Part shown: positions 14,283 through 64,000 of the stretch, one piece after another
How positions within the stretch are numbered: the stretch's first letter is position 1
Layout: every line of letters starts with the position of its first letter
From: Cyanidioschyzon merolae
Lineage: Eukaryota
Assembly: GCA_000091205.1 (NCBI GenBank)
Contig: AP006497.2
Direction: 5' to 3' (one strand)
Length of the DNA: 64,000 nucleotides
Made by a program: the position numbers and the translations under genes
Notes under the pieces: generated by a model
Told to the model about the DNA's origin: nothing
The model's database searches: none
What the model saw: only the letters and a program-made list of their open reading frames with translations

Positions 14283-14302
14283 CCTGCGCTAAACGCTCAC
14301 TC

Positions 14303-15232: not shown

Positions 15233-15765
15233 AGCCTTTCGTCGATAATTACAAAGAGACAACGATCTATATTTTCAAATGAATCAATTATTTCATTTGA
15301 TATTTTCAATGAGCTTCTGGCATGGGCTTGTTAACAAGTCGTCCGGCAATGAAGTCGCATTTTTCATTGTTTATCTAAAGGCGCGAATTGCTGCGCCCAT
15401 GGACCACCATGAATCGAACGGATCGAATACTTTAAGCATGTATGATTTTAGCATGCTGCAGGTACGGAAATGAGAACAGTGGAGGATTCTACGTATGCAG
15501 TGGATAATGACACGGCTTGTTTTACGAACCGTTACTCAAGGGCGCAGCGGGTCATCTTCTACCCCGTAGCGGAACGGATTCCAGCGGCAAAAGCTCGAAA
15601 AAGCCGCTCTGAAACGACGACCACGAACTCTGATACTGTGCATGAATCCGTAATCCCCCGTCGCTGCACCTTGAATGTCTAGGATGTACATCCAAAAAAG
15701 GTCCGGAAAGAGACAGAAAGGCAGGCACGGAGCTACCAGTCCGGTATTCCATGTTAATATGACAC
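15233..15765 (-). repeat. Repeat family B, right arm of the inverted pair
   Basis: See left arm; reverse-complement identity to 14303-14835. Confidence 0.8.
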
Positions 15766-43663: not shown

Positions 43664-44953
43664 GGTTGAACAATACTGGAAGAAATAGGGATATGCGTCC
43701 AGCGCAGTAAACCGATATTCTCGAAGACTGCCCGCTGTCAATGCTAGAAAACGACCCGTTGATTACCATACGGAATGCAGAAAGCGACGATAGTAGCCGC
43801 CACGAGTATCCCTGTTTCTCAACAGCGTGTTCGTGTAGTCCTCATAACACCAGGATTCAGTCGCAAAAAAGTCCGATTTACGTCACGGCCATCTTCCACC
43901 GAAATCGCAATGACAGCGTGCACGGAACGCCGCGATCGATATGAAGCAAAGGGATGTCGGTTTGTTTCAGTCGATGAAACTTCTTTGGTACGACACCCTA
44001 GGGGCGTCTATTGGTAATATGCGGAGAGGAAGCCCGTTGTTTGTACGATCGAACTCAAAGAGAATGAAGATATCTTTTTTTCTAGCTTCAATGGATTCAT
44101 TCGGTGGCCTCGGTTTTGCTCGTGGTGATGGCTCGTACAAGAGCACAAATCAATTCGGTGAATCATTGAAGAATTTCCCCTGACGTCTGGTGACGTCCAT
44201 CTATTGAAAAATGTGACATTGCACCATTCCCCTTGGGGGCGAGCTTTTGCCGATTCTATCAGGGAAGAGCTGCTTTTCATTGCTCCGTGCTCTACGTGTT
44301 CCAAACTATTCGAAAGAGTGTTTCCTATCGTGAAACGTAATGATCGCTCCACTGGCCGAGTCGCTGAAGCGTTCAGCGCACGGTGACTCCGGGGTGCATT
44401 CGGTTATTCTTGCGCAAGTGCTTCTCCGTCAGAGAAGGCCCTAACCTAAGGGCATGAGGAAGTGCTTTCATTTTCAAAAATAAAAAATCCAAGGGAAAGT
44501 TATGGAAATGGAACTCAAGTATCCTAGAAGCCCGATGTCGCCGGCAGCGTGAAAAATCGAAAAAATTCTTTCCTCGCTGACCATCGAGCGAAGAAGAGCA
44601 AGATATGAGGAGAAAGAAGAGGGAGATATGAGAGAAAAAGTATTTTCCCGACGGGAAAATCGCTAGACTGTAGTGACACCGAGGGCAAGAGTTCGAGGAC
44701 GCCTTCCACTGGTGTGTTCAAGCAGAGGCAAGAAACGCATGGAGTTCGCGACCCGAGACTTCGACGCCGCCATCAATATTAGGAGATGTGCGGTGCTGAA
44801 GAGGAGACCTGAGGAGCTGACGCGAGCGAACTTTGTGGGGCAGCCCCTCAAGCTCGAAGTGGACACGGAGAAGCTGAAACCGATAGCGAGGGTCGGTCAA
44901 AAAATGGCTCGGAGGCGTCTGCGGATGGGTAGATATATTTATCCTCCATGGTT
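43664..44953 (+). mobile_element. Repeat/transposon family A, copy L3 (plus orientation); its 5' region continues into the right arm of the palindrome
   Basis: Module A ORF 43741..43944 (FSTACSCSPHNTRIQS...FHRNRNDSVHGTPRS). DDE-like tail 44204..44386 (ELLFIAPCSTCSKLFERVFPIVKRNDRSTGRVAEAFSAR). TnpB-like tail 44673..44957 (VCSSRGKKRMEFATRDFDAAINIRRCAVLKRRPEELTRANFVGQPLKLEV). 3' terminus ...atcctccatggtt at ~44953. Confidence 0.7.
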
Positions 44954-45892: not shown

Positions 45893-48148
45893 ATGGAAGC
45901 ATACCTCTCAGCACCTTCACGACCGAGTGTGACGCTTTCTGAATTCTCTGGTCGCCGGGTTTGCCAGACGAAACGGAACGATTCTCTTCTGGGCGCTCGG
46001 GGGAGGTTTGCACCGGGCACGTGGGAGCGCGTAGTGCTCGGGCGTCGCGGTGGTTCCCGTACAGTCAGTCGTTTGCCTCAAGTGCGTGCAACAGCTACTG
46101 CTGGGGTATCGCTAGTGAAGCCAAAGCAGACGGGGAACGCGTTCGCTGACCTCTGCATCAACAGCATTCGTTTCCTGGCTGTCGACGCCGTAGAGAAGGC
46201 GAACTCTGGACACCCTGGAGCGCCCATGGGTCAGGCCCCGCTCGCGTTTACTCTTTGGGACAAGTATCTGCGCTTTAACCCCAAGAATCCGAACTGGGTC
46301 AATCGCGATCGTTTTGTGCTAAGCTGTGGTCATGGGTCTATGCTTCAGTATGCTCTGCTTTACCTTTATGGATACGATCAACCAACAATGGACGATATCA
46401 AAACTTTCTGTGAATTTGGTTCTTGCGCTACGAGTCACCCCGAGAACTTTCTTCTTCCTGGCGTTGAAGTGACCACAGGGCCTCTGGGCTCTGGCGTGGC
46501 ACAGGCTGTTGGTCTCGCTATCGCCGAAGCGCACCTCGGAGCAATGTTCAACACCCCAGAGGAGAAGCTGATTGACCATTACACCTACTTCATTATGAGT
46601 GATGGATGCATGCAAGAAGGAGTAGCTGCAGAGGCCGCATCTTTGGCAGGCCATTTGGGACTGGGGAAACTAATCGGGTTTTTCGATGATAACAAGATAA
46701 CTTACGATGGACCAACAGACCTTGCGTTTAGTGAGGATGTCGTATCTAGATTCAAATCGTATAACTGGCAGGTAATTAGCATTGCAGATGGAAACACAGA
46801 CATCGACAACATCTCGAAAGCAATCGAGGAGGCGCAAAAAGATCTGACACGACCATCACTAATCATAGTTCCGACAACAATTGGTTTTGGCTCACCAAAA
46901 CACGCGAACAAAAGGACAGCACATGGAGAACCTTTCGGATCTGACGAAGTCAAGGCAACGCGGGAGAATCTTGGATGGAAATATGCTCCTTTCGAGGTCC
47001 CAGAGGAGGTGCTGAAACATTGTCGCCGCAAGATCCAAGAGGGGGCACGTCTTGAACAGGAATGGAATGAGCTCTTGCAGCGGTACAAGAGTAAGCACCC
47101 AGAACAGGCTGCACTATTCGAGCGGATGGTGATTCGCAAGGAGAAGAGCCCTGGTTGGGAAAAGGCCCTCAAGGATTGTGCGGCAAAGACAGGCTCCATG
47201 GCTACGAGGCAAGTCTCCGGCGCAATGCTCAATGCGCTCGCTGCGGTGATGCCGGAGATCATCGGGGGATCTGCAGACCTGGCCCCTTCGAACAACACGC
47301 TCCTGAAGGGCTTTGGCGATTTCTCTCGTAACAACTACAAAGCCAAGAATATGCGCTTCGGTGTCCGCGAGGCAGCGATGACTGCGATCACCGCGGGCAT
47401 CAAGCTCCACAACACTGGACTGTTTCCCTACTGCGCGACTTTTCTGATATTCACCGATTACGCCCGGGGCATGCTCCGCCTTGCTGCCCTCTCCGAGGCG
47501 GGAATCACGTTCATTACAACGCACGACTCCGTCGCCTTAGGCGAGGATGGCCCCACGCACCAGCCCATCGAGCATCTGGCTAGCCTGCGAGCTATGCCGA
47601 ATGTGTACACGTTCCGTCCGTGCGATGCGAACGAGTGCGCAGCTGGCTATGCGCTCTCGATCCGGCATGATGACAAAGTCGTTCTGTTGGCGCTCACGCG
47701 ACAGAAGACGAACAAGCTCGAGACATCCTCATACGATGGTGCCCTGCGCGGAGCGTACGTGGTTTCGGATAATAGCCCTGCGGGCAAGCACCCGGATGTG
47801 ATCCTTATCGGAACAGGCTCCGAGGTGGACGTCGTCGTGGAGGCCGCCGATCAACTACGAACTAGCGATGCTTTGAATGTGCGCGTGGTGTCGATGCCCT
47901 GCATGGAGCTCTTTGAGGACCAGGATGCAGCTTATCAAGAGTCTGTGCTTCCTGCTGCCGTGCCTCGCAGCCGGAGGGTCGTATGTGAGGCTGCCTCAAG
48001 CTTCGGCTGGTCGAAGTATGCGGATCACTTTGTGTGCATCGATCGCTTCGGAGCGTCCGGCAAAGGGCCTGACCTGATGAAGTACTTTGGGATCACGCCG
48101 TCGAACGTAGCGAAGAAGGCGCGAGAGGCTGCAGGAAAAGGCGTTTGA
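45893..48148 (+). CDS. Transketolase, copy 1 (with ~75-aa N-terminal presequence); central block diverged, including Tyr in place of the conserved His of the LLHL motif
   Basis: 751 aa with standard TK blocks ([82 protein letters not shown]). Ends are nucleotide-identical to copy 2, but 46325-46943 differs: SCGHGSMLQYALLYL, SHPE, MSDGCMQEG, YDGPT. Confidence 0.95.
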   Translation: MEAYLSAPSRPSVTLSEFSGRRVCQTKRNDSLLGARGRFAPGTWERVVLGRRGGSRTVSRLPQVRATATAGVSLVKPKQTGNAFADLCINSIRFLAVDAVEKANSGHPGAPMGQAPLAFTLWDKYLRFNPKNPNWVNRDRFVLSCGHGSMLQYALLYLYGYDQPTMDDIKTFCEFGSCATSHPENFLLPGVEVTTGPLGSGVAQAVGLAIAEAHLGAMFNTPEEKLIDHYTYFIMSDGCMQEGVAAEAASLAGHLGLGKLIGFFDDNKITYDGPTDLAFSEDVVSRFKSYNWQVISIADGNTDIDNISKAIEEAQKDLTRPSLIIVPTTIGFGSPKHANKRTAHGEPFGSDEVKATRENLGWKYAPFEVPEEVLKHCRRKIQEGARLEQEWNELLQRYKSKHPEQAALFERMVIRKEKSPGWEKALKDCAAKTGSMATRQVSGAMLNALAAVMPEIIGGSADLAPSNNTLLKGFGDFSRNNYKAKNMRFGVREAAMTAITAGIKLHNTGLFPYCATFLIFTDYARGMLRLAALSEAGITFITTHDSVALGEDGPTHQPIEHLASLRAMPNVYTFRPCDANECAAGYALSIRHDDKVVLLALTRQKTNKLETSSYDGALRGAYVVSDNSPAGKHPDVILIGTGSEVDVVVEAADQLRTSDALNVRVVSMPCMELFEDQDAAYQESVLPAAVPRSRRVVCEAASSFGWSKYADHFVCIDRFGASGKGPDLMKYFGITPSNVAKKAREAAGKGV

Positions 48149-48447
48149 GGACGCCGCGGAAGCAGCGGTTCTGTGCCGGGCAAAGATTTTCAAGCGGCGT
48201 TTGCTGCGGCAACGCTCTGCGGAATGGGAACGCTTTGGAAGAGAGTATTCTTGCAGGGTCTAAACACGGCTGTAGTATCCCGCGTGATCACGTTGGGCCT
48301 CATCGTTCTCGTTCGCAAATGCGTTCCGTAGAACGTGCTGTTCTCTAGGGTAACAACGGCTGGGTACGCGGCAGCTGCATCGCCTCTGGGCTGGAGCGGG
48401 TCCTGCGGTTTTGAACCGTTGTCCACCTCGAAGGTTTTCTCCCGCCG

Positions 48448-48963
48448 ATGGCGTCCGGGTTGGAGCACCTCCAACGGGCGCTCTGGAGACGGGGCCTTCC
48501 GTGCTTCAGCCTTGACTGGCTCACGCAAGCACACGAACGTTACCCAGACGTTGAAGAACTCGTAACGTTTGCTCTGGAAACAGTCGACTTTGAGGACCGG
48601 CGCGTCGTCGAGAGAGGCAGCCTTCCTGCGGAGGCACAGCCAGCGCTGCTCTCCAAGGAAGACGGCGTGGTCGTTCCCATACGCGGGGAGCTTCTCGTTT
48701 TTCAGGTGCTGGACGTTGCGGACGTCAGCGCCGCTGAGGAAAAAGCGGATCTTCCAAGCGGGCCCGAGCGCACTCTGAAGCTTCTGCTGACGGACGGTCG
48801 CCTCGAGTTGGCCGCTATCGAGGACGCTCCGATACCGGACCTCGGAACGAGTCTCCCTCGTTGCACGAAAGTCTGTGTGCGGAAACCTATGCTGCTGCAC
48901 GGGTTGCTGGTGCTGCGTCCCGAGAACACGTCCGTAGTGAGGCCTCGGCCGAGCTGCATATAG
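48448..48963 (+). CDS. RMI1-like OB-fold protein (RecQ-mediated genome instability protein 1 N-terminal domain-like), copy 1
   Basis: 171 aa. TLKLLLTDGRLELAAIEDAPIPDLGTSLPRCTKVCVRKPMLLHGLLVLRPENTSVV aligns with the RMI1 N-terminal OB fold (human [59 protein letters not shown]). The 400-aa Arg-rich minus ORF 48190..49392 is its antisense artefact. Confidence 0.6.
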   Translation: MASGLEHLQRALWRRGLPCFSLDWLTQAHERYPDVEELVTFALETVDFEDRRVVERGSLPAEAQPALLSKEDGVVVPIRGELLVFQVLDVADVSAAEEKADLPSGPERTLKLLLTDGRLELAAIEDAPIPDLGTSLPRCTKVCVRKPMLLHGLLVLRPENTSVVRPRPSCI

Positions 48964-49640
48964 AAGGAGTGGCTGCGGCTGCCGCTTGGGCGTATCGCAA
49001 ACGAGTTCTTGGTGATGCATCGGGCGAGCAGCTGCCGCGTCCAGCTCGAGTGTCGGACCGAATATCGCCTGTTTGATGATGTATCTGCGTGGAGCTTTCG
49101 AGATGGATACGCTTGTACGAAAAATGATCGTAGGTGTGGCATGCCTGCATGCTCGAGACACCGGCAGGATGCGTTCTACGACTGTGCCTCGGAGGCTCGT
49201 GCAGAACGCTGCCGAGACGTGCACACTGGCGCTGTGGCGCTTTCGGGCTACGGAAGTCTGGAAAGAGCGTTCTCCAAGCTTTGCACAACGCCTATGCCGG
49301 TACCTGCAAGACCACGCTGTGTCGTGAGGCACCCCTGGTTCCCATGGGTCATGCTTCAGAGCGCGAGTGAAGCGCCGCGGATGCTGCTCCATAGCAGAAT
49401 AGGTGCGGTGCTAGATCGAACTAGCGGCCTGATCTAATATGCACGCTGGTGCGTGAAAGTCTTCCATGCACATTTTGGGATATGGAATCGAGTGCGTAGC
49501 AGAAGATTGCGCAAGACTGTTTCGATGCATGCGAGTGCGCACGCTGTGACGCAGCAGGGGATTTGCGAGCCTCGGCTGGCAGGGCCCCCAGCCGGCGTCC
49601 ACGAGGGAATAGCTGAGCTGTCCCGTCTGTGTGTGGCGTT

Positions 49641-49646
49641 CGCAGT

Positions 49647-49685
<39 letters not shown>

Positions 49686-49695
49686 GCGCTCGACT
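49641..49695. repeat. Microsatellite (CAG/CAA)n; length variant of the one in duplicate copy (63941-63990)
   Basis: gcagtagcagcaacagcaacagcaacagcaacagcaacagcagcg; copy 2 has an extra gta-gca unit. It generates the poly-Leu/poly-Cys artefact ORFs on the minus strand. Confidence 0.9.
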
Positions 49696-50714
49696 CCAGA
49701 GCAAGCGCTCACTGAAGAAACGCCACCGGGTAGGGCATCTATGCAGCGAACCATAATCCTCAGAGCGAAGTCTGGAGACTGGTGTGTGGAACACGGTGGA
49801 TCTGGTGCGGAATGATATCTGCTTCCGTAAATGCCGATTGGAATCGAGACATTTAGGGATCCCCTATAAGATTCAAGGATCCTGCGCTACTGAAGAACAA
49901 CTTGCGGGGACTCACCGAGGATCCATCGTCGTGTCCGAACGATCGCGGCGAAGGATGCAAACGCATGATCTCCCCAGTCACGCATAATGCCACGGACGGA
50001 AGGTGCATAAGATATTTCGATTCCAGTTCTATTCGTGCACGCATGAGCTCCCTAGTCACGCATAATGCCACGGAGTAAAAGTACACAACGTATCTAGATT
50101 CCGGTTTACTTCTTGCGCTTCTTGTTCATACTGTTGCAAGGCGAAATCGTCGGTGTTCGCAGTTATTCACGGGTATAACGCCGAAATTTGCGATACCCTG
50201 ACGCTTACCGGTGGGCGGGAGCCCTCCTGTGGACACACTCGGCGATACTCGGTGCATGGGCTGTAGATCACAGGCGGACGATCGTTAAAGGTCGCTGTGA
50301 TTTTAGTGTTGCCCATACCTCTACGCGTGGAAGTCATCCCCAGAGGGCGGCTCTCGAGCGCGCTGCCCTCGGTGACTCGGAGCGGCGCATGGTCTCCGCA
50401 CTGGTAGCGATGATGCAGGAGCATCACTCGAGCGCAACCTGTGTACGCCCCTCTCGGGCACCAGTCTGCGTAAATCTACCAGAAAAATATTCGATCGTCT
50501 CTGCCGTAGGTGTCTTGCTCGACAGTGCGGTCAGCGCGGTGCATTGGATGCGCGGAGCTGCCCCTGGGATGGTCCGCTTGGTTTCGGGTTGTGCGCGGGT
50601 CTTCCAGTGACCCCTCGCGTCCACAGAAGCATCAGGCCGGTGTCACGTAGAGCGCTCCAGTTGCTGCGAGCCTGTGGATCCTGCACTAGCCGAGCACCGA
50701 CTGGGCGCTCAAGG

Positions 50715-53036
50715 TTACAGCGGGGATCGTCCAGTGTCTGTATCACGGTGGTAGTCGAAGGGCTCATTGAAAACGCATCCAACTTGACCCCGTAGATATC
50801 TCTCCATGAGATCCCTGGTTGAAGCGTTGAACTCTTCCGAAATGGGGCGGCCGAAGTAGCGGCTTTCGTTCAGCTGCTTTCGGACACGCTTTGCGAGCAC
50901 CTTTCCGAGTTCGACGCCCCACTGGTCGAATGAATTGATGTCCCAGATGAAACCCTGGACTGCCGTGCGATGCTCATAGAGCGCGAGCAACTGGCCAGTG
51001 GCGTACGGATCCAGCCTCTGCAGCAGCAGCGTCAGACTCGGCCTGTTGCCAGTCGTCACGAGATGCGGAATCAGCCATTCGGGGCGGCCCTCTGCACGAC
51101 ACTCCGCCGCTGTTTTGCCGTACGCCAGAGCATCTGGCTGGGCGAAAAAGTTCGCCATGAGCTCGTCTGCATTGCTGACCGGCTCACCCTCGATGCACAG
51201 CGGGTACTGGGACTCGATGAAGCCAATAAAATCGCAGGGTACCGTCTGCCCCATATGCAGCAGCTGGAAAAACGAGTGCTGGCCGTTGGTGCCGGGCTCT
51301 CCAAAGTCGATCTCACCGACCGCGTAGTCGACGTCGTCGCCGCGCAGCGTCACGTGCTTACCGTTGCTCTCCATGTCAACCTGCTGGATATGAGCGGGGA
51401 ACTTGAGAAGCGCCTCTGCGTAAGGATGCAGCGCCCGGCTCTTGTAGCCGAGAAAAGACAGGTTCCAGACGCCGAGAAGCCCCATGATCACCGGCAAGTT
51501 CCCCGCCAGCGGACTAGCAACGTCGTAAAAGTTCGCATCAACAGAGCGCGCGCCCTCTAGAAATCGCAGGAACGTGGGGAAGCCGTACTGAATCGAGAGC
51601 GGCAGCGCTCCGACCGCAGAGCACACGGAATACCTACCCCCGACCCAGTCCCAAAACTCAAAAGTGTTCCGCGGGTCGATCCCGAACTTCTCCACCATCG
51701 GCACGTTGCTGCTGCAGGCAACCATGTGGAGCCGCACGACCTCATCCGAGCGCCCCATTTCGGACCAGAGCCATTCGCGCATCGCCCGTGCATTCAGAAG
51801 CGTCTCCGCGGTTGTGAACGACTTGCTCACGATCACTATCAGCGTCTCCTCCGCCGACAGATCCTGCGTGCAGCGCTTGATATCCACAGGATCCACGTTG
51901 CTGAGAAAATGAAGGTGCCGCCCCCGCGCCGCCTCAAACGCCTCCGGATCCGTCCGAAACGCCTCGTGCACAAAGTCTGGCCCCAGATACGAGCCGCCAA
52001 TCCCCACAGCGATGACGCTGCGAAGCGGCTTCCCCGTGGCGCCGCGATGCTCCCCGCTGCGCACCCGCTCGCTGAACTCACGCACGTGATCGAGCACCCG
52101 CCACACGTCACGAACAACGTCCGTACCGTCGACAACAAGGCTTGCGTTCCGCTCCGCGCGAAGCGCCGTATGCAGCACGGCGCGCCGCTCGGTCACGTTT
52201 ATGTGCGCGCCGGACTGCATCGCGCGGATCTTATCCACCAAACGCGCACGACGCGCTAGCGCGAAAAGTAGCTCAATCGTATCCTTCGTCACCCGCTGCC
52301 GCGAGTAGTCGAGGTAGATCCCGTCATACTCAGCGCGCAGAGAACGCACGCGATCGACGTCCTGCATCAGCTCCCGCAGGTGCAAACGATCGATCTCAGA
52401 TGCATGCTCCACCAGCCGTCTCCACTCGGCAGTCTCCGAGATGAGGACGTAGTCGGTCGGCACCGGCAGTGGTGGCGGCGTTTCCGAAGGAAGCCGCCTC
52501 CCAACGGTGTAGCTCCCGCGAACGTCCCCCGCTGTGCAACGCGGAAACGCACGTCTCCGCAAAAGCCCAGCAGACCCGTGGTGCGGGTACAGCGCCCTGG
52601 ATCGGCGCGATCCAGCTACCCCACCCCGAAGCGGCCACCCAGGCACGACAAAGGCGCTCATCAGGCGAACACTCTCCCAGCAAGCAAAGACCAGGTGCAC
52701 ACTATTGCGCACTGCACCGCGCAGCGAGCTTTCAACTGGCGTCCGCTTCTTGGGCGATTCGCCTCCGGCACGCGCGGCAGGCGGGTGCAGCTGCGAGGGC
52801 GCGGCCAACGGATCAGCGACTCGTTGATAGACTTTCACCTGAATTGCGTTCCATACGCAGGTGCGTGCCATCAACTGCTCTTTCGCCGCTGATGAGAGAC
52901 GCGTTCCGCGTGCGTGCCTTAGCAGAAATAAAAAATCTAGGGGAAGGTATGGGCATGGAAGTCGGAGATCAAAGGCGGTCGCCATGGCCGGCTTCTTGAG
53001 GGAAAGGACGAAAGAAATCCTGGTCTCGCCGACCAT
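50715..53036 (-). CDS. PGI: Glucose-6-phosphate isomerase (PGI); ORF has a ~190-aa N-terminal extension, and the real start is probably an internal Met (<=52870) because the extreme 5' end overlaps TE copy L4
   Basis: Mature part has canonical PGI blocks: [55 protein letters not shown], and the isomerase signature ...[10 protein letters not shown]. Confidence 0.9.
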
Positions 53037-53408
53037 GGAGCGAAGAAGCGCAAGTGACGAAGAAGAAGAGAGGCACAGGGGCGGCAGGCGAGAAGAGGGG
53101 TTCGCCCGATGAGACTGCGACGAGACTGTACTGGGAGAGGGGGCACGAGATCGAGGAACTCTCGCAATATCGAGTTCATGCAGAGGAAATATAGAGATGG
53201 AGTTCGTGACCTGGGACCTCTATGCCGCCATCAATATCAGGGAATGTGCGGTTCTGGAGACGAGGCCCGCAGAGCCGACGCGATCCAGCATTGTGGGGCA
53301 GCCCCTGAGGCTTGAAGTGCACAAGGCGAAGCTGCAGCCGATGGCAGGGGCTGGTCAGGAACTGCTGGGAGGCGTCTGGGACTGGATATATATTTACCTA
53401 CCATGGTT
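52880..53408 (+). mobile_element. Repeat/transposon family A, copy L4 (5'-truncated; retains the A-rich internal segment and the TnpB-like tail)
   Basis: agcagaaataaaaaatctaggggaaggtatgggcatggaag...ccatggagcgaagaagcgcaag aligns with L3 ttttcaaaaataaaaaatccaagggaaagttatggaaatggaac...ccatcgagcgaagaagagcaag. TnpB-like tail [41 protein letters not shown]. 3' end ...tacctaccatggttg at ~53408. Confidence 0.65.
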
Positions 53409-56049
53409 GTGGATTATTGCGCGTGAGGCAGCGCGATATTTCTTCCACCTCGTTGATTGGGCGCTTCTCCCAGCGCGCATACATTCACACCGACGCATTC
53501 GATCACGCACCATTCTCTTCCTCGCCACCCTTCGTTCCCGGTACAATACTTTTCACAAAACGTGTAGATTATTACGAAATTCATTGCGGCACTTTGCACT
53601 GTCGCGGGCATATCGTACAGGACTTTCTGCTGAGTGCGATAACGCCTCCAAGGCTTCTAAGACATCATTGCGTTTGGCCTGCACGTTTCTGGATTATTCG
53701 CCCAGTCATTACTCTCTGCTGAGATAAAGATGAGACGTATGTTAGTAGGTCTTACAGCTGTTGGTTGAAGTCCGATGGTTCACCAACGATTCCTCCAGTG
53801 CGTCGTCGTTTACCACAGGCAGGCGGACTCCTCCTCGAGCCTCAACGAAGCGCTGGTGTATGGAGTCTCTTTCCCTGGCTTCAGGCCGACGCACTGTGCA
53901 TAGCGGAGAAGATTCACGAGGACATGCTTCTGCATTGCTTGATGTTCCACCGTGTCTTACCTCATCTGAGCAGAGGAGCGTTTGGGCTCTCAGTGGGCCG
54001 TGTACCGTGCAAGACGCCCGCGTTTGATGATTTTGGATGCAGCTACGTCATTGGTCTCGAAGGAGGACGCTACGTCTTGTCGTGATGGTGCGAATTCTTT
54101 GTTCCTTCTTTATTTCTTTCCCATACGCATCTATCTTTGCTTTCATTGACTTGTCGCTCCTCCTCCCGTTTTTGCGTTCCTTCGAAGCTTCGGGCCAAGA
54201 GCGCACAATTTCTTCCATGCACTCCAGGCAGTCGATAAGCTCCTCTTCTGCTTTGATGCTCTTCGTGTTGTGCATCAGAAGCATCTACGCCGCCTGTACG
54301 GAGGCGCCCCACTCAATCAAATTGGAAAAAAGCCTCATATCGAGGTGCTGGTAGGAGCGACTTAAAGATTCGATTGGAAAAGTAGAAAATTTCTTCCCTT
54401 CAGGGACACGGTACAGCACCCCAAATGCAGAAGCATCATCCCTTTCTTTTGCTGGTTACTCACAGGCGACAGCTGAATCATTTCTTTGGCGTATTCGTCT
54501 CGGAAAAGCATTCGACGGAGGTTTACAATGCTCCCTCTCTTTCCAGTCGATGGGCTTCGACGAAACGCCGATAACGAAGAGCTCCTTCATGTCGCCCGGA
54601 CTTGAGACCGACTCGTGGTTTTTTCGTTTCAACATCAACGAATACATCACCCGAGGGTGGAAGTGAACGCTGACGTGTTTCAGGCTCGCCGTGCATACTT
54701 TTCGTCCCAAGTGCCTCTTTGTTTTTCTGGAACGCTTTGAGTCTCGCAACGAGTGAAATCCTCGGCATCCGCAAATTTGTTCAGCTGAAAGACCGAAGAG
54801 CGTTCGGCGTCGATGAAAGCTCAGAGCGAGAGAGGAGTACTCGGCATGTACTCTGGAAGAGTGAGGGCATAGAAGGCGGTCGGTGTCAATAGTCTCTCAA
54901 AGAAATTCATCACTTTCACAAGGTCCTTGAAGTGAGGAATGTCCGCAGTCTTGTGCGAAAGGCAAGCATGTTGCTGGAGCTTGCTGAAAGAAATGCATAT
55001 TTACATGCGCAGGATGTGTGCTCCGGCAAGAGCAAGCACGCTCAGATGAATCCCTTTATGAGTGTAGCGTCGCAAAGTAGCGACACGCAAAGCTCCTCGT
55101 TCGCGTAGCTGCCCGAGCGTTGAGGTTCGTACAGCAAGGCGATCCGTCGAAAGGTGGCGACGTTCTCTGGGACGGGTATGCACCTCTGTTCGAAATGCTC
55201 TAGGATTTCTTTTTAGTCCTTAAACAGCTGTTTCCCTCTCTCACATGGTGTGGTTGGGCTGTGTGCCTCTGTTGACGAACCAGCAATTTATTGTCATTCT
55301 CAATTCATCTTTCAACTTTTTCCCTCACGTCTCTTCAGAAATCCGCCAACCTAAAACTTGGAAACCTTGTGCGAAACAAACCCTGGCAGGCCGGGCGGTT
55401 TCAATTGCGGCCTCTAAAGCGACGAGCACCAGTTCGTATTGAGGACAATCCAAGGTATTGACATGTGCATCCGCTTCCCCAGGTCAGTGCCTCGCGGAAC
55501 CGGAAGACGTTCTTCATTTGGCGAAACTATGGAAAATAAGTTCGAATGCATAAAATGATCCATCCTCTGGTCTCTACTCATTACCAACGGAAAAGTATTT
55601 GTGGAACGCGATTTTTCCACGAAGAAGAATATACTGGGGCGAAAATCCGGGTTTGAGGACGAGTTGAGAAATTTCGATATTTGCAAGCTCCCTTCTTGTG
55701 AAGATCTGATGCGCTCTTCGTGGAAAGCGATCGCTGGGATGACTGACGTCCGAGTCTTAGATACTTTTCTCTCCAAACAGAGGAGGTCGGAGCCTCTGAG
55801 AGCTTCTCTCGATTTTGGTACTATGCTGCTATCGAATGCCGTTTCATCGATGGCAGGACGGAGTAGGGGACCCTCCTTTTGAACAGAATCTATTGTATTA
55901 CCCTAGATGGTCAGTTACGTTCTAGAGTGATCTTGTCAACGAGTCTCCAACGAGCAGCCTCGAGTAATTTTTGTCGTCAACCCAGCAGTAAGCGAGACCT
56001 GCTGCGCCCACGACTTGTCTTGAAACATAAAGATAGAAAACTTGAAACA

Positions 56050-56370
56050 TGCATGATTTGAGCACCCAACTCGTAAGGAAGGAGGAAGAAAGGAGGCTTA
56101 TAAATACAAAATCGATCATGATACCGGGTATTTTACAATTGCTTGTTTGACAGCGTCGAGAATCAGCTTGATTTCAGTGACGCATGGAACTCCAGCGGCA
56201 GACTGTCGAAAGAGCCGCTCAGAAATGCCAACCGAGTGTTCTAAAATTAAGTATGAAACCATATGCCCTTATGGCTGATAGTCGAACGTTGACGCTGTAC
56301 ATCTAGAAAGAGTGCATAAAAACGAAAGACAAGAGAAGACCGAGCAGTTCATTATTCCATTGTGTTCGGC
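56050..56370 (-). repeat. Repeat family C, copy 2; contains an intact 48-aa small ORF (56116..56262, minus)
   Basis: See the 32770-33080 entry for the alignment. Minus-strand ORF: MVSYLILEHSVGISERLFRQSAAGVPCVTEIKLILDAVKQAIVKYPVS*. Confidence 0.5.
56116..56262 (-). CDS. Conserved small ORF (48 aa) within repeat family C; function unknown, could equally be a terminal exon or a pseudo-ORF
   Basis: Peptide aligns without gaps to the copy-1 remnant with mostly conservative replacements (GVPCVTEIKLILDAVKQAI versus ADICYVTGMRLIRDALKKAF), although nucleotide identity is only ~60-65%. Confidence 0.3.
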   Translation of the reverse strand: MVSYLILEHSVGISERLFRQSAAGVPCVTEIKLILDAVKQAIVKYPVS

Positions 56371-56893
56371 ATTGGCGGAGGCACAAGCATTCGCTCCACA
56401 GTGGCAAATCTCGAGCGAGTGCGTTTCTGGAGTTCTTCCACAGGCAAAAAGACCCGACCGCGTGTAACAATTTCCTCTGCTAGAAATAATCGATTACGTG
56501 CGTGGACTCCTCGGTGACCCTGCAGCAGTCGAATTTCTGCGTGCTTCGTGCGTATCGGCGCCCAAAACGCCCTTAGGCTGTGACTGGGCTGGACACGCTA
56601 AGGACTGACACGGGAGCCAGAGGCTGGGATCCAGCCTGGGCAGTTTGGGTTTGCTGGTCGCGTGGAATTATAAGCAGTGTAAATCACTTGTTCGGACTGA
56701 GGTGAGTGCCTTAAGTAACTTGGCTGTTTGCTGAACCAGCTCTCGTGCGTGCTGTTGGCGACTTTGGCTGGGTTGCACAAGCTTGGTGCCCAAGTTCGTA
56801 GCCCCCAAACGCCAGGTTCGAAGTGCACATTGGCCACGGTCTCGGCTTGTTTACTGACTTTGCGCTCTATGAAACCCGCAGTAGCTCAACAGG

Positions 56894-57787
56894 ATGGTCC
56901 GAGGCGAAGCCAGCTCCAGCAGCATGCCACGCGCTTTGAGCATCGCAGGCTCGGACTCGGGAGGCGGTGCCGGCATCCAAGCCGATCTGAAGACTTTTGA
57001 AGCCCTCGGCGTGTACGGCATGACCGTTATCACAGCGATCACGGCCCAGAATACGGTTGGAGTGCAGGCCGTGGAGGGTGTGTCTCCCGCTTTGGTTCGC
57101 GCCCAGTTACAGAGCGTTCTGAGCGACATCGGCGTTGACGCCATAAAGACTGGTATGCTTTTGGACTGCGGCACCATCAACGTGGTGGCAGATACCATAG
57201 AGAGCAGCGAACCAGCTGCCATGGCGCCTCTGGTCGTCGACCCAGTCATGGTGGCAAAGAGCGGCGACCGCTTGCTTGCCGCCGATGCAGTAGCGGCCTT
57301 GAAGACTCGTCTTGCACCGCTGGCAACGGTTCTAACGCCAAACATCCCCGAGGCCGAACAGCTGCTAGGTAGGCGCCTCACAATCGATAGCATGGATTCA
57401 ATGCGACGTGCACTTGTCGAGCTCATGGAGGAGTTGCCTGAAACGCGCGCAGTTCTTCTCAAGGGCGGCCACCTAGACTCCACTGGCAACGTCTGTGTTG
57501 ACCTGTTTAGCGATCGCGTACACGGCGGTCTAACTGAGCTTACACTTTCAAGACTTAGCTCGAGGAACAGTCACGGAACGGGCTGCACCACTGCATCGGC
57601 GATAGCTGCTGGCCTCGCTAAGGGCTACCCCTTGCTTAAAGCAGTTTACCTGAGCAAGCGATATGTGCACGGGTGCATTGAGCATGCCTTGCCGTTGGGC
57701 GCTGGGTGTGGTCCGCTCTTCCACGCACACCTTCAGGCAGCAGATGGTGCTCTCGATGCTAAGCTGAAGGAGCTTATCGGAGACTGA
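56894..57787 (+). CDS. Hydroxymethylpyrimidine/phosphomethylpyrimidine kinase (ThiD-type, thiamine biosynthesis)
   Basis: 297 aa. ALSIAGSDSGGGAGIQADLKTFEALGVYGMTVITAITAQNTVGV is the ThiD N-terminal signature. A ribokinase-family fold (GG motif, DPVMVAKSGD) continues throughout. Confidence 0.9.
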   Translation: MVRGEASSSSMPRALSIAGSDSGGGAGIQADLKTFEALGVYGMTVITAITAQNTVGVQAVEGVSPALVRAQLQSVLSDIGVDAIKTGMLLDCGTINVVADTIESSEPAAMAPLVVDPVMVAKSGDRLLAADAVAALKTRLAPLATVLTPNIPEAEQLLGRRLTIDSMDSMRRALVELMEELPETRAVLLKGGHLDSTGNVCVDLFSDRVHGGLTELTLSRLSSRNSHGTGCTTASAIAAGLAKGYPLLKAVYLSKRYVHGCIEHALPLGAGCGPLFHAHLQAADGALDAKLKELIGD

Positions 57788-58293
57788 GGCGACATCCCAG
57801 CAATCTTTCTGATTGGACTCAGAAGGATTGCCTCGGGCGCTGCAGCTACTTGCCGCGGTAAAGTAAACAGGAGAGAACAACCGTCCTTTCATGGAGCATC
57901 CACGGTGACCGGCCGCAAAGTGTGGGAGTGACTTGTCAGCGTCCCAAAGGTATGAAGGCCTCTTGCGGCTTTAGGCCACGAGTGATCCTCTATAGGCACC
58001 GACAGAAGAACCAACCCTGGACAGGGAGCACTTCATCGAGTTCGCTATTCGAGCAGTCCATTCCTTGCGGGTTTCAGGGTTCTGAATCGCGCGAGGCCCC
58101 CACCGCCCGGTTGCCTCCGACAAGAACCGCTCGCAGCACTGAGGGCCACCCGCGTATTGTTCGTGCTGTAGCGCGTCCCGAGAAGCTCCAGATCCAGCAC
58201 ACAGATGGGGGCATAGAGCGCATGCGCCTCATTCGTGTCATATCCTCGCCTGGAGAATATCTGTACGACACGAACCAGACAGAGCGTGATGTT

Positions 58294-58761
58294 CTACCGG
58301 CCGGTGCTCCCGAAACCCTTGCAGCCGCGTTGCGTTTCCTCCAGCTCGGCCACCTCCACAACTGGTGGTGTCTCGATCCGTTCCAGAATAAGCTGAGCAA
58401 TCCGCATCCCAACTTCGACCTGGAAGCATTCCTCGCCCAGGTTGAAAATCACAACACCGAGGTTCCCGCGGTAGTCCTGATCCACTACTCCAGCGCCGAG
58501 ATCGATACCGTGCTTCAGAGCCAGCCCGCTACGAGGTGCAACACGGCCATACGTGCCGACAGGTACGGCAACTGCTAGGTCAGTGCGGACGAGCGCGCGG
58601 CCTCCTGGTGGAATCTCGACGCTCTCAGCGGCAAAGAGGTCGTAGCCCGCCGCGTGCTCTGAAGACCGGAGAGGCAACGTAGCGCACTCACTCAATCGTT
58701 TCACACGTAATGCACCAGACTCTTGATTGCTTTCCGTTTGGCACATGGTGAACCTCTTCAC
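58294..58761 (-). CDS. DUT: dUTP pyrophosphatase (dUTPase)
   Basis: 155 aa with all five dUTPase motifs: AAGYDLFA, GRVAPRSGLALKHGIDLGAGVVDQDYRGNLGVVIFN, RIAQLILERI, RGCKGFGSTG. Confidence 0.9.
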   Translation of the reverse strand: MKRFTMCQTESNQESGALRVKRLSECATLPLRSSEHAAGYDLFAAESVEIPPGGRALVRTDLAVAVPVGTYGRVAPRSGLALKHGIDLGAGVVDQDYRGNLGVVIFNLGEECFQVEVGMRIAQLILERIETPPVVEVAELEETQRGCKGFGSTGR

Positions 58762-60192
58762 GCACTAGCAGCGAAGCAGTAGTACGGAAATGCAAATTCC
58801 CGCCAGATATGTTACCGATGCGCGAGCGCATATGGCCAGATTCATGGGTGGCGCGCGCTCAAGCCACACGAGACCATGTTTGCGTGCCGCGCGCGCAAAA
58901 TGCTACGAACAGCGTCCTAGTCAGCTGTATACTGCGCGGGAAATCATCCCTCAAATAGCTGCCTGAGTCGCGTCCAGTGAACGAGTCGGGAGCATGCTAT
59001 CTTGTGGTCTCGCAGCGCGGGAACGCTAGAGCCGCTGCTGGTGGGGCTGTATACGCTGACGCAGTTATTTAGGTGCGCTATTGTCTAATCGAATGTGGAT
59101 CCCACCGGCTGCACACAAGCACCTGAGGACGAGAGGAGCACCTGCCGTATCCGTTTGAGTACGCATATGTTCCAACAGCGTGAGAATGATCGCACGAAAG
59201 GGAATGGTCGCCAGATTGTGCTAATGACGAGCTGTCTCCGAGTGCTGAGCCTGCCTCGTGCGCCCACTGTAAATCTCTGTTTGCCGCCGGCGCGCCTGAG
59301 GCAACCGCTAGGTGCAGACGTAATGGCCTCGTGATTCCTTGTGGGCATCATCTCGAGGACGCAGGCGGTTTCATACTATTTGCATTCGTTTCCGAGTGCG
59401 CTCCTAGGCGTTTAAACACGGCACTGGCAGGTTGCGCTCTGCGCGAGGCGCCGCTGCAGTTCGTGCTGGCTCGAACGGGCTCGTTTCTTTCTCGCGCAAC
59501 GTGTGGCTACTGCAATTTGTGATTTGTAATTGCTTATTGCTGCATGAAGCCGCGTCCGAGGCATACTCTATGGAACTCGAGCCCGAGCACCGAGAGGATT
59601 GGTGCAAAACTCGAGCGAGCTTAGCAGATTTCGAGCTATACCTTCGTGGCGATGTTTGATGAGGGGACCTGGCATACGTTCCCGCAGCATCAGCTTCTTG
59701 CATAAATGTCCAATGGTTTGAGCATGCAATATCGCCTGTTATCTTTTTATTCTGAAGCAGCACGCGGCGATTGATTGTTGAGTTCACATCGGAGCAATTT
59801 AGGCGCTTGCCTCGTATTTGCGCCGGCTTGCATCTATTTTCAGAAAGTTGGCTTCTTGGGACCCTATAGCATCTGTACAACCGACTCCGCATCAAGTGGT
59901 TTCAGTTTTTTCCCATTGTGAGGAAAACATGCTTGCATTGGATCCGTTTCGGTAATGCATGCCCGGAGGCGCACCTGATGATGCAGCCGCGATTAGCTCT
60001 CGTGCGTTGCGGTCGTTGGCAGGATGCGTATCAACGTGTGATGTTCAAGTTGATCCTTAGTTGTACATAAAATTCTAATTCAGGTCAGCGCAATCGACAA
60101 CCATGCGTTTCGCACGCGTTGACGACGACGACATCAAACATTCATAAGTTTTTGGGGAACGACTTTCAAGAAGCTTACCTTTCTGCAAAATA

Positions 60193-62448
60193 ATGCTCGC
60201 ATACCTCTCAGCACCTTCACGACCGAGTGTGACGCTTTCTGAATTCTCTGGTCGCCGGGTTTGCCAGACGAAACGGAACGATTCTCTTCTGGGCGCTCGG
60301 GGGAGGTTTGCACCGGGCACGTGGGAGCGCGTAGTGCTCGGGCGTCGCGGTGGTTCCCGTACAGTCAGTCGTTTGCCTCAAGTGCGTGCAACAGCTACTG
60401 CTGGGGTATCGCTAGTGAAGCCAAAGCAGACGGGGAACGCGTTCGCTGACCTCTGCATCAACAGCATTCGTTTCCTGGCTGTCGACGCCGTAGAGAAGGC
60501 GAACTCTGGACACCCTGGAGCGCCCATGGGTCAGGCCCCGCTCGCGTTTACTCTTTGGGACAAGTATCTGCGCTTTAACCCCAAGAATCCGAACTGGGTC
60601 AATCGCGATCGTTTTGTGCTAAGCAGCGGCCACGGGTCAATGCTATTATATGCTTTGCTTCACCTCTATGGGTATGATCGTCCAACAATAGAAGATATCA
60701 AACAGTTTCGGCAGCTTGGTGCGGTAACCGCGGGTCACCCCGAGAACTTTCTTCTTCCTGGCGTTGAAGTGACCACAGGGCCTCTGGGCTCTGGTGTGGC
60801 ACAGGCTGTTGGTCTCGCTATCGCCGAAGCGCACCTCGGAGCAATGTTCAACACCCCACAGGAGAAGCTGATTGACCATTACACTTACTTTATCATGGGT
60901 GACGGATGTGCGCAGGAAGGTGTTGCCTCCGAGGCATCGTCTCTTGCAGGGCATTTACGACTGGGGAAGCTGATCGGTTTCTATGATGATAACAAAATAA
61001 CGATTGACGGGCACACTGATCTTTCATTCAGCGAGGATGTGGGTGCACGCTATGAGGCGTACGGTTGGCAGGTCCTGAGGGTTCCCAACGGTAATGAGGA
61101 TCTCGGAGCAATTGAGCAGGCCATCCTCACAGCAAAAAGCGATACAACGCGTCCATCACTGATAATTGTCTCGACTATTATTGGCTTTGGATCCCCTCAC
61201 AAAGCAGACACGCATGATGTTCACGGAGCTGCCCTCGGTGCCGACGAAGTCAAGGCAACGCGGGAGAATCTTGGATGGAAATATGCTCCTTTCGAGGTCC
61301 CAGAGGAGGTGCTGAAACATTGTCGCCGCAAGATCCAAGAGGGGGCACGTCTTGAACAGGAATGGAATGAGCTCTTGCAGCGGTACAAGAGTAAGCACCC
61401 AGAACAGGCTGCACTATTCGAGCGGATGGTGATTCGCAAGGAGAAGAGCCCTGGTTGGGAAAAGGCCCTCAAGGATTGTGCGGCAAAGACAGGCTCCATG
61501 GCTACGAGGCAAGTCTCCGGCGCAATGCTCAATGCGCTCGCTGCGGTGATGCCGGAGATCATCGGGGGATCTGCAGACCTGGCCCCTTCGAACAACACGC
61601 TCCTGAAGGGCTTTGGCGATTTCTCTCGTAACAACTACAAAGCCAAGAATATGCGCTTCGGTGTCCGCGAGGCAGCGATGACTGCGATCACCGCGGGCAT
61701 CAAGCTCCACAACACTGGACTGTTTCCCTACTGCGCGACTTTTCTGATATTCACCGATTACGCCCGGGGCATGCTCCGCCTTGCTGCCCTCTCCGAGGCG
61801 GGAATCACGTTCATTACAACGCACGACTCCGTCGCCTTAGGCGAGGATGGCCCCACGCACCAGCCCATCGAGCATCTGGCTAGCCTGCGAGCTATGCCGA
61901 ATGTGTACACGTTCCGTCCGTGCGATGCGAACGAGTGCGCAGCTGGCTATGCGCTCTCGATCCGGCATGATGACAAAGTCGTTCTGTTGGCGCTCACGCG
62001 ACAGAAGACGAACAAGCTCGAGACATCCTCATACGATGGTGCCCTGCGCGGAGCGTACGTGGTTTCGGATAATAGCCCTGCGGGCAAGCACCCGGATGTG
62101 ATCCTTATCGGAACAGGCTCCGAGGTGGACGTCGTCGTGGAGGCCGCCGATCAACTACGAACTAGCGATGCTTTGAATGTGCGCGTGGTGTCGATGCCCT
62201 GCATGGAGCTCTTTGAGGACCAGGATGCAGCTTATCAAGAGTCTGTGCTTCCTGCTGCCGTGCCTCGCAGCCGGAGGGTCGTATGTGAGGCTGCCTCAAG
62301 CTTCGGCTGGTCGAAGTATGCGGATCACTTTGTGTGCATCGATCGCTTCGGAGCGTCCGGCAAAGGGCCTGACCTGATGAAGTACTTTGGGATCACGCCG
62401 TCGAACGTAGCGAAGAAGGCGCGAGAGGCTGCAGGAAAAGGCGTTTGA
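60193..62448 (+). CDS. Transketolase, copy 2 (canonical active-site residues; same N-terminal presequence as copy 1)
   Basis: 751 aa. The central block matches canonical TK (yeast TKL1-like): [111 protein letters not shown]. Confidence 0.95.
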
Positions 62449-63952
62449 GGACGCCGCGGAAGCAGCGGTTCTGTGCCGGGCAAAGATTTTCAAGCGGCGT
62501 TTGCTGCGGCAACGCTCTGCGGAATGGGAACGCTTTGGAAGAGAGTATTCTTGCAGGGTCTAAACACGGCTGTAGTATCCCGCGTGATCACGTTGGGCCT
62601 CATCGTTCTCGTTCGCAAATGCGTTCCGTAGAACGTGCTGTTCTCTAGGGTAACAACGGCTGGGTACGCGGCAGCTGCATCGCCTCTGGGCTGGAGCGGG
62701 TCCTGCGGTTTTGAACCGTTGTCCACCTCGAAGGTTTTCTCCCGCCGATGGCGTCCGGGTTGGAGCACCTCCAACGGGCGCTCTGGAGACGGGGCCTTCC
62801 GTGCTTCAGCCTTGACTGGCTCACGCAAGCACACGAACGTTACCCAGACGTTGAAGAACTCGTAACGTTTGCTCTGGAAACAGTCGACTTTGAGGACCGG
62901 CGCGTCGTCGAGAGAGGCAGCCTTCCTGCGGAGGCACAGCCAGCGCTGCTCTCCAAGGAAGACGGCGTGGTCGTTCCCATACGCGGGGAGCTTCTCGTTT
63001 TTCAGGTGCTGGACGTTGCGGACGTCAGCGCCGCTGAGGAAAAAGCGGATCTTCCAAGCGGGCCCGAGCGCACTCTGAAGCTTCTGCTGACGGACGGTCG
63101 CCTCGAGTTGGCCGCTATCGAGGACGCTCCGATACCGGACCTCGGAACGAGTCTCCCTCGTTGCACGAAAGTCTGTGTGCGGAAACCTATGCTGCTGCAC
63201 GGGTTGCTGGTGCTGCGTCCCGAGAACACGTCCGTAGTGAGGCCTCGGCCGAGCTGCATATAGAAGGAGTGGCTGCGGCTGCCGCTTGGGCGTATCGCAA
63301 ACGAGTTCTTGGTGATGCATCGGGCGAGCAGCTGCCGCGTCCAGCTCGAGTGTCGGACCGAATATCGCCTGTTTGATGATGTATCTGCGTGGAGCTTTCG
63401 AGATGGATACGCTTGTACGAAAAATGATCGTAGGTGTGGCATGCCTGCATGCTCGAGACACCGGCAGGATGCGTTCTACGACTGTGCCTCGGAGGCTCGT
63501 GCAGAACGCTGCCGAGACGTGCACACTGGCGCTGTGGCGCTTTCGGGCTACGGAAGTCTGGAAAGAGCGTTCTCCAAGCTTTGCACAACGCCTATGCCGG
63601 TACCTGCAAGACCACGCTGTGTCGTGAGGCACCCCTGGTTCCCATGGGTCATGCTTCAGAGCGCGAGTGAAGCGCCGCGGATGCTGCTCCATAGCAGAAT
63701 AGGTGCGGTGCTAGATCGAACTAGCGGCCTGATCTAATATGCACGCTGGTGCGTGAAAGTCTTCCATGCACATTTTGGGATATGGAATCGAGTGCGTAGC
63801 AGAAGATTGCGCAAGACTGTTTCGATGCATGCGAGTGCGCACGCTGTGACGCAGCAGGGGATTTGCGAGCCTCGGCTGGCAGGGCCCCCAGCCGGCGTCC
63901 ACGAGGGAATAGCTGAGCTGTCCCGTCTGTGTGTGGCGTTCGCAGTAGCAGT

Positions 63953-63985
<33 letters not shown>

Positions 63986-64000
63986 GCGCTCGACTCCAGA
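60199..64000 (+). repeat. Segmental duplication unit 2 (mate of 45899-49700); truncated by the window end
   Basis: See unit 1. Confidence 0.9.
62748..63263 (+). CDS. RMI1-like OB-fold protein, copy 2 (identical to 48448..48963)
   Basis: Identical 171-aa translation at +14300 offset. Confidence 0.6.
   Translation: MASGLEHLQRALWRRGLPCFSLDWLTQAHERYPDVEELVTFALETVDFEDRRVVERGSLPAEAQPALLSKEDGVVVPIRGELLVFQVLDVADVSAAEEKADLPSGPERTLKLLLTDGRLELAAIEDAPIPDLGTSLPRCTKVCVRKPMLLHGLLVLRPENTSVVRPRPSCI

Follow-up and report, generated by a model that had tools for sequence, protein, structure and literature searches.

A direct repeat with two transketolase genes

The window analysed here, a stretch of 64,000 nucleotides from the hot-spring red alga Cyanidioschyzon merolae, strain 10D (contig AP006497.2), contains two full-length genes for transketolase (TK), which are located in the same orientation in the two units of a tandem segmental duplication. 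The two units are identical over almost the entire compared length, with the exception of a strongly diverged block of about 600 bp inside the TK genes. The two versions of this block are designated type A for the upstream gene (TK-A) and type B for the downstream gene (TK-B), and both have also been identified in the genus Cyanidiococcus. The most probable explanation, held here with considerable confidence, is an old tandem duplication homogenised by gene conversion, from which the active-site core escaped in two trans-specific versions.

An ungapped comparison of positions 45899-49700 with 60199-64000, at an offset of 14,300 nt, revealed 178 mismatches in 3,802 positions. All except two of these (176) are located inside 46325-46942, where 28% of the 618 nt differ, and the other two at about 49652 and 49654. 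At the remaining 3,182 positions, including noncoding DNA and an RMI1-like gene, the units show no difference. An earlier note on this DNA had described identical flanks around a diverged block at 46325-46943; this description holds, including the start of the block, while its end has to be placed at 46942. In a sliding-window comparison the left edge of the repeat was abrupt, with an identity between the units of about 25% through 45898 and of 100% from 45899. In the interior of the block the identity was 46% to 82% over most of its length and reached 98-100% at 46451-46550, within a near-identical island that had likewise been recognised before and whose limits are given in Table 1.

On the codon level, the block (codons 145-350) contains 59 synonymous and 60 non-synonymous codon differences. 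Outside of it, the TK genes differ solely in codon 2, which lies at the edge of the repeat, and codons 3-144 and 351-751 are without any difference. The substitutions in the block consist of 86 transitions and 90 transversions with every class represented, and 102 of the 176 are found at third codon positions. Because of this spectrum and the excess at third positions, a one-sided mutator is not the source of the block, and both versions are long-diverged coding sequences.

The right end of unit 1 was placed at about 53418, where a metagenome contig from ENA (L006, 99.7% identical) switches to an ABC transporter. The units had been proposed to be at least 3.8 kb long with a period of 14.3 kb; the offset was verified, and the full unit comprises about 7.5 kb. 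Since each unit has this length, the gene for glucose-6-phosphate isomerase (PGI) is part of the repeat and not of the DNA between the units, where it had been placed together with ThiD and dUTPase; a second, identical PGI follows the second TK copy. The continuation of unit 2 through this second PGI is given by the protein entries BAM81499 and BAM81500 and by the metagenome contigs L004 and L006. The spacer of 6,780 bp contains only the single-copy genes for ThiD and dUTPase, as expected. The RMI1-like gene reported for the unit was recovered as an open reading frame (ORF) with a Pfam match. For the microsatellite, a difference of one repeat unit had been claimed; it is equal in length in both units and differs by two substitutions, GCAGCAACA versus GCAGTAGCA. 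In addition, the end of a further metagenome contig, L001, matches about 49961-50074 at two offset positions, an indication of a short local repeat at this site.

Table 1. Features of the transketolase locus of C. merolae (positions in the window; strand in brackets; nt, nucleotides; aa, amino acids).
Feature	Position	Second copy or partner	Accession, locus tag	Remarks
Direct repeat unit 1	45899..53418	unit 2		~7,520 bp; TK type A, RMI1-like gene, PGI; identical to unit 2 as far as the window reaches, TK block and microsatellite apart
Direct repeat unit 2	60199..64000	unit 1		cut by the window end; expected to ~67718
Transketolase type A, 751 aa	45893..48148 (+)	type B	BAM81493, CMO121C	all Pfam TK domains; translation = P0121
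Transketolase type B, 751 aa	60193..62448 (+)	type A	BAM81498 (exact protein), CMO128C	Pfam match
Divergent sub-block 1 in TK-A	46325..46435 (+)	60625-60735 (TK-B)		codons 145-181; 36 nt differences
Homogenised island	46436..46597 (+)	60736-60897		codons 182-235; 5 nt differences within C. merolae
Divergent core	46598..46942 (+)	60898-61242		codons 236-350; 135 nt differences; SDG/GDG thiamine-diphosphate motif, DDN metal site, HG loop
RMI1-like gene, 171 aa	48448..48963 (+)	62748-63263		Pfam RMI1_N_C, E = 9.4e-11
Hypothetical 400-aa protein	48190-49392 (-)	62490-63692 (-), same protein	BAM81494, CMO122C (copy 1); BAM81499, CMO361C (copy 2)	
Hexanucleotide microsatellite	49643..49682			holds the sole two inter-unit differences outside the TK block
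PGI copy 1	50715..53036 (-)	PGI copy 2	BAM81495, CMO124C	Pfam PGI; annotated 648-aa model starts at 52661
ThiD, phosphomethylpyrimidine kinase	56894..57787 (+)		BAM81496, CMO125C	single copy, spacer
dUTPase	58297..58746 (-)		BAM81497, CMO126C	single copy, spacer
PGI copy 2	beyond the window end, after TK copy 2	PGI copy 1	BAM81500, CMO363C	identical to the ORF in the window

The pair in Cyanidiococcus and its age

For Cyanidiococcus, three genome data sets were available, two assemblies that were read and one published gene list. In both assemblies of Cyanidiococcus yangmingshanensis, the gene order is TK-A, RMI1, PGI, ThiD, dUTPase, TK-B, RMI1, PGI and ThiD, followed by an ABC transporter, and the repeat period is 10,067 bp. 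The gene list of the third strain has the same order with a second dUTPase in addition. When the two units of one assembly were compared, 138 mismatches were located inside the TK block and 2 outside it (about 8.8 kb). As in C. merolae, the upstream TK is type A, marked by SDG for GDG, FDDN for YDDN and HGEP for HGAA, and the downstream TK is type B. The RMI1-like orthologue occupies the same position, an orthologous DUF8361 gene is the upstream neighbour of TK-A in both genera, and the downstream neighbour of the repeat is the same kind of ABC transporter. In Cyanidiococcus the homology between the units begins 1 nt ahead of the ATG, in C. merolae at codon 3; because it starts at the start codon, the DNA upstream of the two TK genes is entirely different.

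The limits of the block are not the same in the two genera, with codons 145-350 in C. merolae and 171-347 in Cyanidiococcus. In sub-block 1 of Cyanidiococcus, divergence is left only at codons 171-181, and codons 145-170 of its type-A gene show type-B states. Such unequal limits are what independent conversion tracts would produce. The core that is divergent in both genera consists of codons 171-181 and 236-347.

Trees were calculated for the separate segments by neighbour-joining with 1,000 bootstraps, with the sequences of C. merolae (Cm) and Cyanidiococcus (Cy) labelled by type. For the core (amino acids 236-350) the sequences group by type, with 100% support for (CmA,CyA) and 97% for (CmB,CyB). 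For the flanks (amino acids 86-144 and 351-751) they group by species, with 100% for both (CmA,CmB) and (CyA,CyB), and the island (amino acids 182-235) also groups by species, with 90% and 86%. This change of topology along one gene, together with the occurrence of the same A and B blocks in the tandem pair of Cyanidiococcus, bears out two proposals of the earlier note, that gene conversion between paralogues created the mosaic and that an old duplicate pair is being homogenised with one segment escaping.

Substitutions were counted by the method of Nei and Gojobori, and mostly the proportions of non-synonymous and synonymous differences (pN and pS) are reported, since synonymous saturation prevented an estimate of the corresponding synonymous rate (dS) in most comparisons. 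Between the genera, pS was 0.74-0.86 in the flanks and the island, which is saturated. Between type A and type B, the core gave an equally saturated pS of 0.86 within C. merolae and of 0.76 within Cyanidiococcus. Within a species the TK flanks showed 0 differences in C. merolae and 0-2 per segment in Cyanidiococcus, and the island 5 differences within C. merolae versus 36 between the species (pS about 0.8). Because core and flanks are saturated to the same extent, the duplication and the split into types A and B are older than the separation of the genera, and the flanks have been homogenised repeatedly since then. Constraint on the protein level is ruled out as the cause of the flank identity, because silent and noncoding sites are identical as well.

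A further signature was found in the GC content at third codon positions (GC3): that of the type-A core is 0.375 and that of the type-B core 0.467, compared with 0.65 in the homogenised flanks (Fisher p = 3e-9 and 8e-5). A metagenome relative with a single TK (contig L009, TK 69% identical) shows no GC3 dip in the corresponding region. The pattern is consistent with GC-biased conversion confined to the flanks. In the type-A block of a natural strain (contig L005), four synonymous differences from strain 10D of C. merolae were identified, three of which are the type-B nucleotide; this suggests micro-conversion or a shared polymorphism.

The single-copy relative L009 contains one TK-PGI pair in the same neighbourhood. 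A published orthogroup table gives two TKs for C. merolae (CMO121C and CMO128C), two for Cyanidiococcus, and one each for Cyanidium caldarium and Galdieria partita (PMC13353863). The genes for TK, PGI, ThiD and dUTPase are clustered in C. merolae (45893-58746), in Cyanidiococcus (contigs L002 and L003) and in L009, and the gene numbering suggests that Cyanidium caldarium and Galdieria partita likewise have TK next to PGI. The location of a thiamine-diphosphate enzyme next to a gene of the thiamine pathway, ThiD, may be more than chance.

The two enzymes and the annotation of the locus

Both TKs are full-length proteins with the domains Transketolase_N, Transket_pyr and Transketolase_C, and with Transketolase_N, type A scores 450 bits and type B 488 bits. 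The best relatives with a solved structure are the TKs of maize and Chlamydomonas (E about 1e-232). By their domains and conserved residues, both copies are assigned to transketolase (EC 2.2.1.1) of the plastid/cyanobacterial type. The N-terminal 144 residues are common to both except for residue 2, and the Pyr and C-terminal domains are identical. The shared N-terminus is read as a plastid transit peptide, so that a division of labour between the two enzymes would be expected in catalysis or in regulation and expression, not in localisation.

The residues H147, H182, D237, N267 and H344 are present in both types, in the motifs SxGH, GHPE, GDG, DDN and HG; by these motifs we take them to be equivalent to H69, H103, D157, N187 and H263 of the yeast enzyme. 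There is no insertion or deletion (indel) between type A and type B. Fixed differences between the types across both genera were identified at 23 positions, and at 14 of the 23 type A carries the derived residue at a site conserved in 116 homologues. The type-A changes R173C, G181S, G236S and Y264F affect sites that are invariant in 116 of 116 homologues, and further derived changes include Q174E, T179A, A346E and A347P. Position 271, an invariant Ile (I271), is occupied in type A by Y (C. merolae) or F (Cyanidiococcus). In both genera, type A has also gained a pair of cysteines, Cys173 and Cys178. Presumably, the type-A changes adjoin the catalytic histidine of GHPE, fall within the diphosphate motif GDG, affect the residue corresponding to E. 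coli Ile189 and follow directly on the His-Gly of the HG loop.

The two cores have evolved at different rates. Between the genera, the type-A core (CmA versus CyA) has a pN of 0.157 and a pS of 0.813, and the type-B core (CmB versus CyB) a pN of 0.064 and a pS of 0.751. The corresponding non-synonymous rates (dN) are 0.176 for the type-A core, 0.067 for the type-B core and 0.064 for the C-terminal flank. Thus, the type-A core evolved about 2.6 times faster than that of type B, which matches the rate of the rest of the protein. Both cores are under purifying selection, and the ORFs of both types are intact in both genera.

Both genes are expressed in Cyanidiococcus. Transcript levels were about 260-320 transcripts per million (TPM) for TK-A and about 570-720 TPM for TK-B, and protein intensities from a single replicate were 4e6 to 1.5e7 for TK-A and 1.5e8 to 2.2e8 for TK-B. 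Type B is the major form in this genus. In a study of central-carbon expression, transketolase is labelled as one TKT entry.

In the annotation of C. merolae 10D, BAM81493 and BAM81498 are separate transketolase entries in a chromosome record of 902,900 bp. The CMO prefix of the locus tags presumably refers to chromosome 15 in the naming scheme. The tags in Table 1 were assigned by gene order and by published tables of BLAST top hits and orthogroups (supplementary tables of PMC13353863). The TK-B protein was also identified together with copy-2 upstream DNA on contig L001. The annotated 400-aa ORFs are antisense to the 171-aa RMI1-like ORFs and have no family match. The 400-aa model is probably placed on the wrong strand, since the 171-aa ORF on the plus strand matches the N-terminal OB-fold domain of RMI1 and is conserved in Cyanidiococcus. 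The identical PGI copies carry unlike reference models of 648 aa (BAM81495) and 773 aa (BAM81500), which are identical over their common length; because identical genes have different models, at least one PGI start codon is mis-assigned.

Further repeats are present in the window. An inverted duplication beside the TK repeat (40305-41702 and 42385-43782; arms of 1,398 nt, 97% complementary) contains the ORFs 40590-41684 (+) and 42403-43497 (-), which code for two 100% identical proteins of 364 aa and form another identical duplicate pair. Their Cyanidiococcus orthologue (69%) is the DUF8361 gene located upstream of TK-A; the proteins have no match in Pfam itself. The DUF8361 palindrome is flanked by a weaker inverted repeat (39164-39449 and 44636-44921; 286 nt, 72% complementary), possibly the outer part, now decayed, of a larger and older palindrome. 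A separate inverted repeat is located at 14302-14834 and 15234-15766, with arms of 533 nt that are 99% complementary and a spacer of 399 nt. On contig L009, which resembles red-algal DNA and carries the single-copy TK locus, an ORF of 98 aa (16252-16548, minus strand) contains a Cas12f1-like/TnpB zinc-finger domain (PF07282).

Origin and meaning of the pair

According to the favoured explanation, a block containing TK, the RMI1-like gene and PGI would have been duplicated in tandem in the common ancestor of Cyanidioschyzon and Cyanidiococcus, after the split from lineages with a single TK-PGI locus. The duplicated block probably first held ThiD and dUTPase too, and in Cyanidiococcus these genes are still part of it. 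Interlocus gene conversion between the direct repeats would then have kept coding, synonymous and noncoding positions alike within each species, with one segment of the thiamine-diphosphate-binding (PP) domain of TK retaining two old versions, A upstream and B downstream. The homogenising process was probably conversion of the non-crossover type, because unequal crossing-over alters the copy number and could not keep two types. Short conversion tracts appear to homogenise the conserved island in the middle of the block still. The persistence of the cores would follow if they encode functionally different isozymes and selection removes converted alleles, and the high divergence of the core probably also hinders the formation of heteroduplexes. 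As the outcome for the cell, type B would be the canonical and more abundant enzyme and type A a faster-evolving variant changed near the active site.

Several points weigh against this explanation. Conversion was deduced from sequence patterns, and no event was observed directly. The part of unit 2 past position 64000 was deduced from protein accessions and from contigs of related strains, not from 10D DNA. Two metagenome contigs show swapped configurations: L005 (JGI 3300054705) combines the left junction of copy 2 with a type-A block, and in L010 (JGI 3300050389) a type-B block follows 68 bp of the DNA upstream of copy 1, in front of which lies unrelated purine-rich sequence. These are either assembly chimeras or real structural variants; chimeric short-read assembly is likely, because junction and block are separated by an identical stretch of 426 bp. 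The trees give no supported placement for the single-copy outgroup with respect to the two types (bootstrap 19-46%), so that a duplication before the split of this outgroup, followed by a loss, is conceivable. Expression was recorded in Cyanidiococcus and not in C. merolae, with one replicate for the proteome and with ambiguous mapping of reads outside the block. Finally, selection and mere sequence divergence as the protector of the core are not separable by these data.

Among the alternatives, an assembly artefact, caused by the expansion of one TK locus or by a tandem placement of two haplotypes, would explain why the flanks are exactly identical, why the offset is a round 14,300 and why metagenome contigs break or wrap at the repeat. 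The earlier note had itself considered a single locus. However, BAM81493 and BAM81498 are separate entries in the finished annotation of a genome published as 100% complete, and 10D is a haploid clone (PMC13353863), by which allelic haplotypes as the origin of the pair are ruled out. Independent metagenome contigs cross both the left and the right junction of copy 2: L001, L004 and L007 connect copy-2-specific upstream DNA or sequence with the type-B block, and L006 links unit 2 to its own right flank. The three data sets of Cyanidiococcus agree on the structure, and separate protein intensities were recorded for the two TKs. An artefact is therefore regarded as excluded. Even less credible is a targeted hypermutation of one copy, for example by repeat-induced point mutation or a diversity-generating retroelement. 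It would fit the restriction of the divergence to one segment of duplicated sequence and the higher A+T content of the type-A core, but the nearly equal numbers of transitions and transversions with an excess at third positions contain no adenine-specific or C-to-T-only pattern, and the block is orthologous and conserved in the other genus. A recent segmental duplication followed by ectopic conversion from a third, divergent TK paralogue, the second source suggested in the earlier note, would agree with the abrupt block edges and with the young appearance of the perfectly identical flanks and the sharp repeat boundary. It would require two parallel imports, since the same A and B blocks are found at the same positions in Cyanidiococcus, and the type-A block is most closely related to its type-A orthologue in the other genus. 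The published orthogroup contains only CMO121C and CMO128C for C. merolae, and no other TK of this species was present among the 120 best homologues. With the type-A block as sole query, the hits were confined to short partial proteins (identity 64% at most) and did not even include the protein it came from, so this search is uninformative on donors; metagenome scans with type-A peptide patterns and a type-A-specific DNA pattern gave no match. Such an import is highly improbable.

The remaining alternative accepts the same history and differs in the cause of the persistence. At a divergence of about 25-30%, rejection of the heteroduplex by mismatch repair could block conversion, and the core would then persist neutrally, with type A as a relaxed, partly redundant copy lacking a function of its own. 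Recombination frequency drops steeply as sequence divergence grows. The 2.6-fold faster evolution of the type-A core, the loss of several otherwise invariant residues and the 14-36 times lower amount of type-A protein in Cyanidiococcus would be in line with relaxation. On the other hand, pN/pS between the type-A orthologues is about 0.19, and the true ratio is lower because pS is saturated. The type-A ORF is intact in both genera, its protein is expressed, and the 23 type-specific residues have been kept across the genera. Conversion also works inside the block, and since the island and codons 145-170 of Cyanidiococcus were converted, the block is not inaccessible to it. In addition, the initial divergence would still call for an explanation. 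Neutral persistence is thus considered unlikely, less so than the other alternatives, and selection is the presumed reason why the core of the old, converted duplicate pair was retained.

What type A does is a matter for tentative proposals, and the following, deduced from the residues, is rather doubtful. The type-A TK of C. merolae (CMO121C) might be neofunctionalised, with an altered substrate preference, cofactor affinity or redox control caused by remodelled first- and second-shell residues and by Cys173/Cys178 beside His182. It might also act mainly in an A/B heterodimer, which is conceivable because the two types share identical Pyr and C-terminal domains. Since transaldolase has been reported to be absent in C. 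merolae (PMC4586181), such a neofunctionalisation could be tied to this absence. If it were true, conversion outside the core would be what keeps the two subunits compatible.

Mosaics of this kind are known from other systems. The human opsin genes OPN1LW and OPN1MW are tandem copies with near-identical coding and noncoding DNA, in which a short functional region resists homogenisation, and a theory of neofunctionalisation under gene conversion has reportedly been developed by Teshima and Innan. The opsin genes were duplicated much more recently, and the sites responsible for their function are known, whereas in the TK pair the synonymous sites of the island are saturated and the pattern is common to two genera. 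Human TKTL1 and TKTL2 are transketolase paralogues with alterations close to the cofactor site, in the N-terminal PP domain, and TKTL1 carries a deletion. In contrast to TKTL1, which is dispersed and fully diverged, type A has no indel, retains those catalytic residues that were checked and does not differ from its partner outside the core.

In Leptodactylus frogs, tandem ATP1A1 paralogues are homogenised by gene conversion, and functional substitutions are kept by selection (Mohammadi et al., bioRxiv 10.1101/2020.08.04.234435). Both cases involve trans-specific tandem duplicates under conversion with a distinct part retained. For ATP1A1, this part consists of 12 scattered substitutions with a demonstrated toxin resistance; for TK, it is a contiguous segment of 530-620 bp with 48-60 amino acid differences, known from its sequence. 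Unlike in ATP1A1, the homogenised region at the TK locus comprises 7.5-9.5 kb and includes neighbouring genes and noncoding DNA. For the tkt paralogues of Vibrionales, a long-lasting concerted evolution has been reported, with a table of the complex of each gene product (PMC6053082). Like the TK pair, these are members of the same enzyme family that are held alike by recurrent long-term conversion. They are bacterial, and neither a preserved divergent active-site segment nor co-converted neighbours are mentioned in the part of that paper considered here. In the literature on transketolase, gene conversion and the locus tags in C. merolae and Cyanidiococcus, no description of the TK mosaic was found. 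The mosaic is a new and unusually clean example of an already known phenomenon.

For practical work, the identity of the flanks means that CMO121C and CMO128C are inseparable by short-read RNA-seq, proteomics and qPCR outside the block of about 600 bp. Gene targeting has been accomplished in C. merolae (PMC3764038), which speaks for a capacity for recombination in this alga; when it is directed at one TK locus, recombination with the other copy can occur.

For genome evolution, the locus is a case in which a block of 7.5-9.5 kb with several genes has evolved in concert, with a signature of GC-biased conversion, over a divergence at which synonymous sites are saturated. For the biology of the alga, it means that two versions of TK are made by the cell, and a candidate isozyme pair with a putative functional difference is pointed out in a model organism. 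Duplicated genes are very few in C. merolae, a minimal model eukaryote, so that a retained pair in central carbon metabolism stands out. Since conversion has erased all neutral divergence elsewhere, the remaining differences mark the region likeliest to separate the isozymes, and the 23 type-specific sites around the cofactor and the substrate site are the candidate positions.

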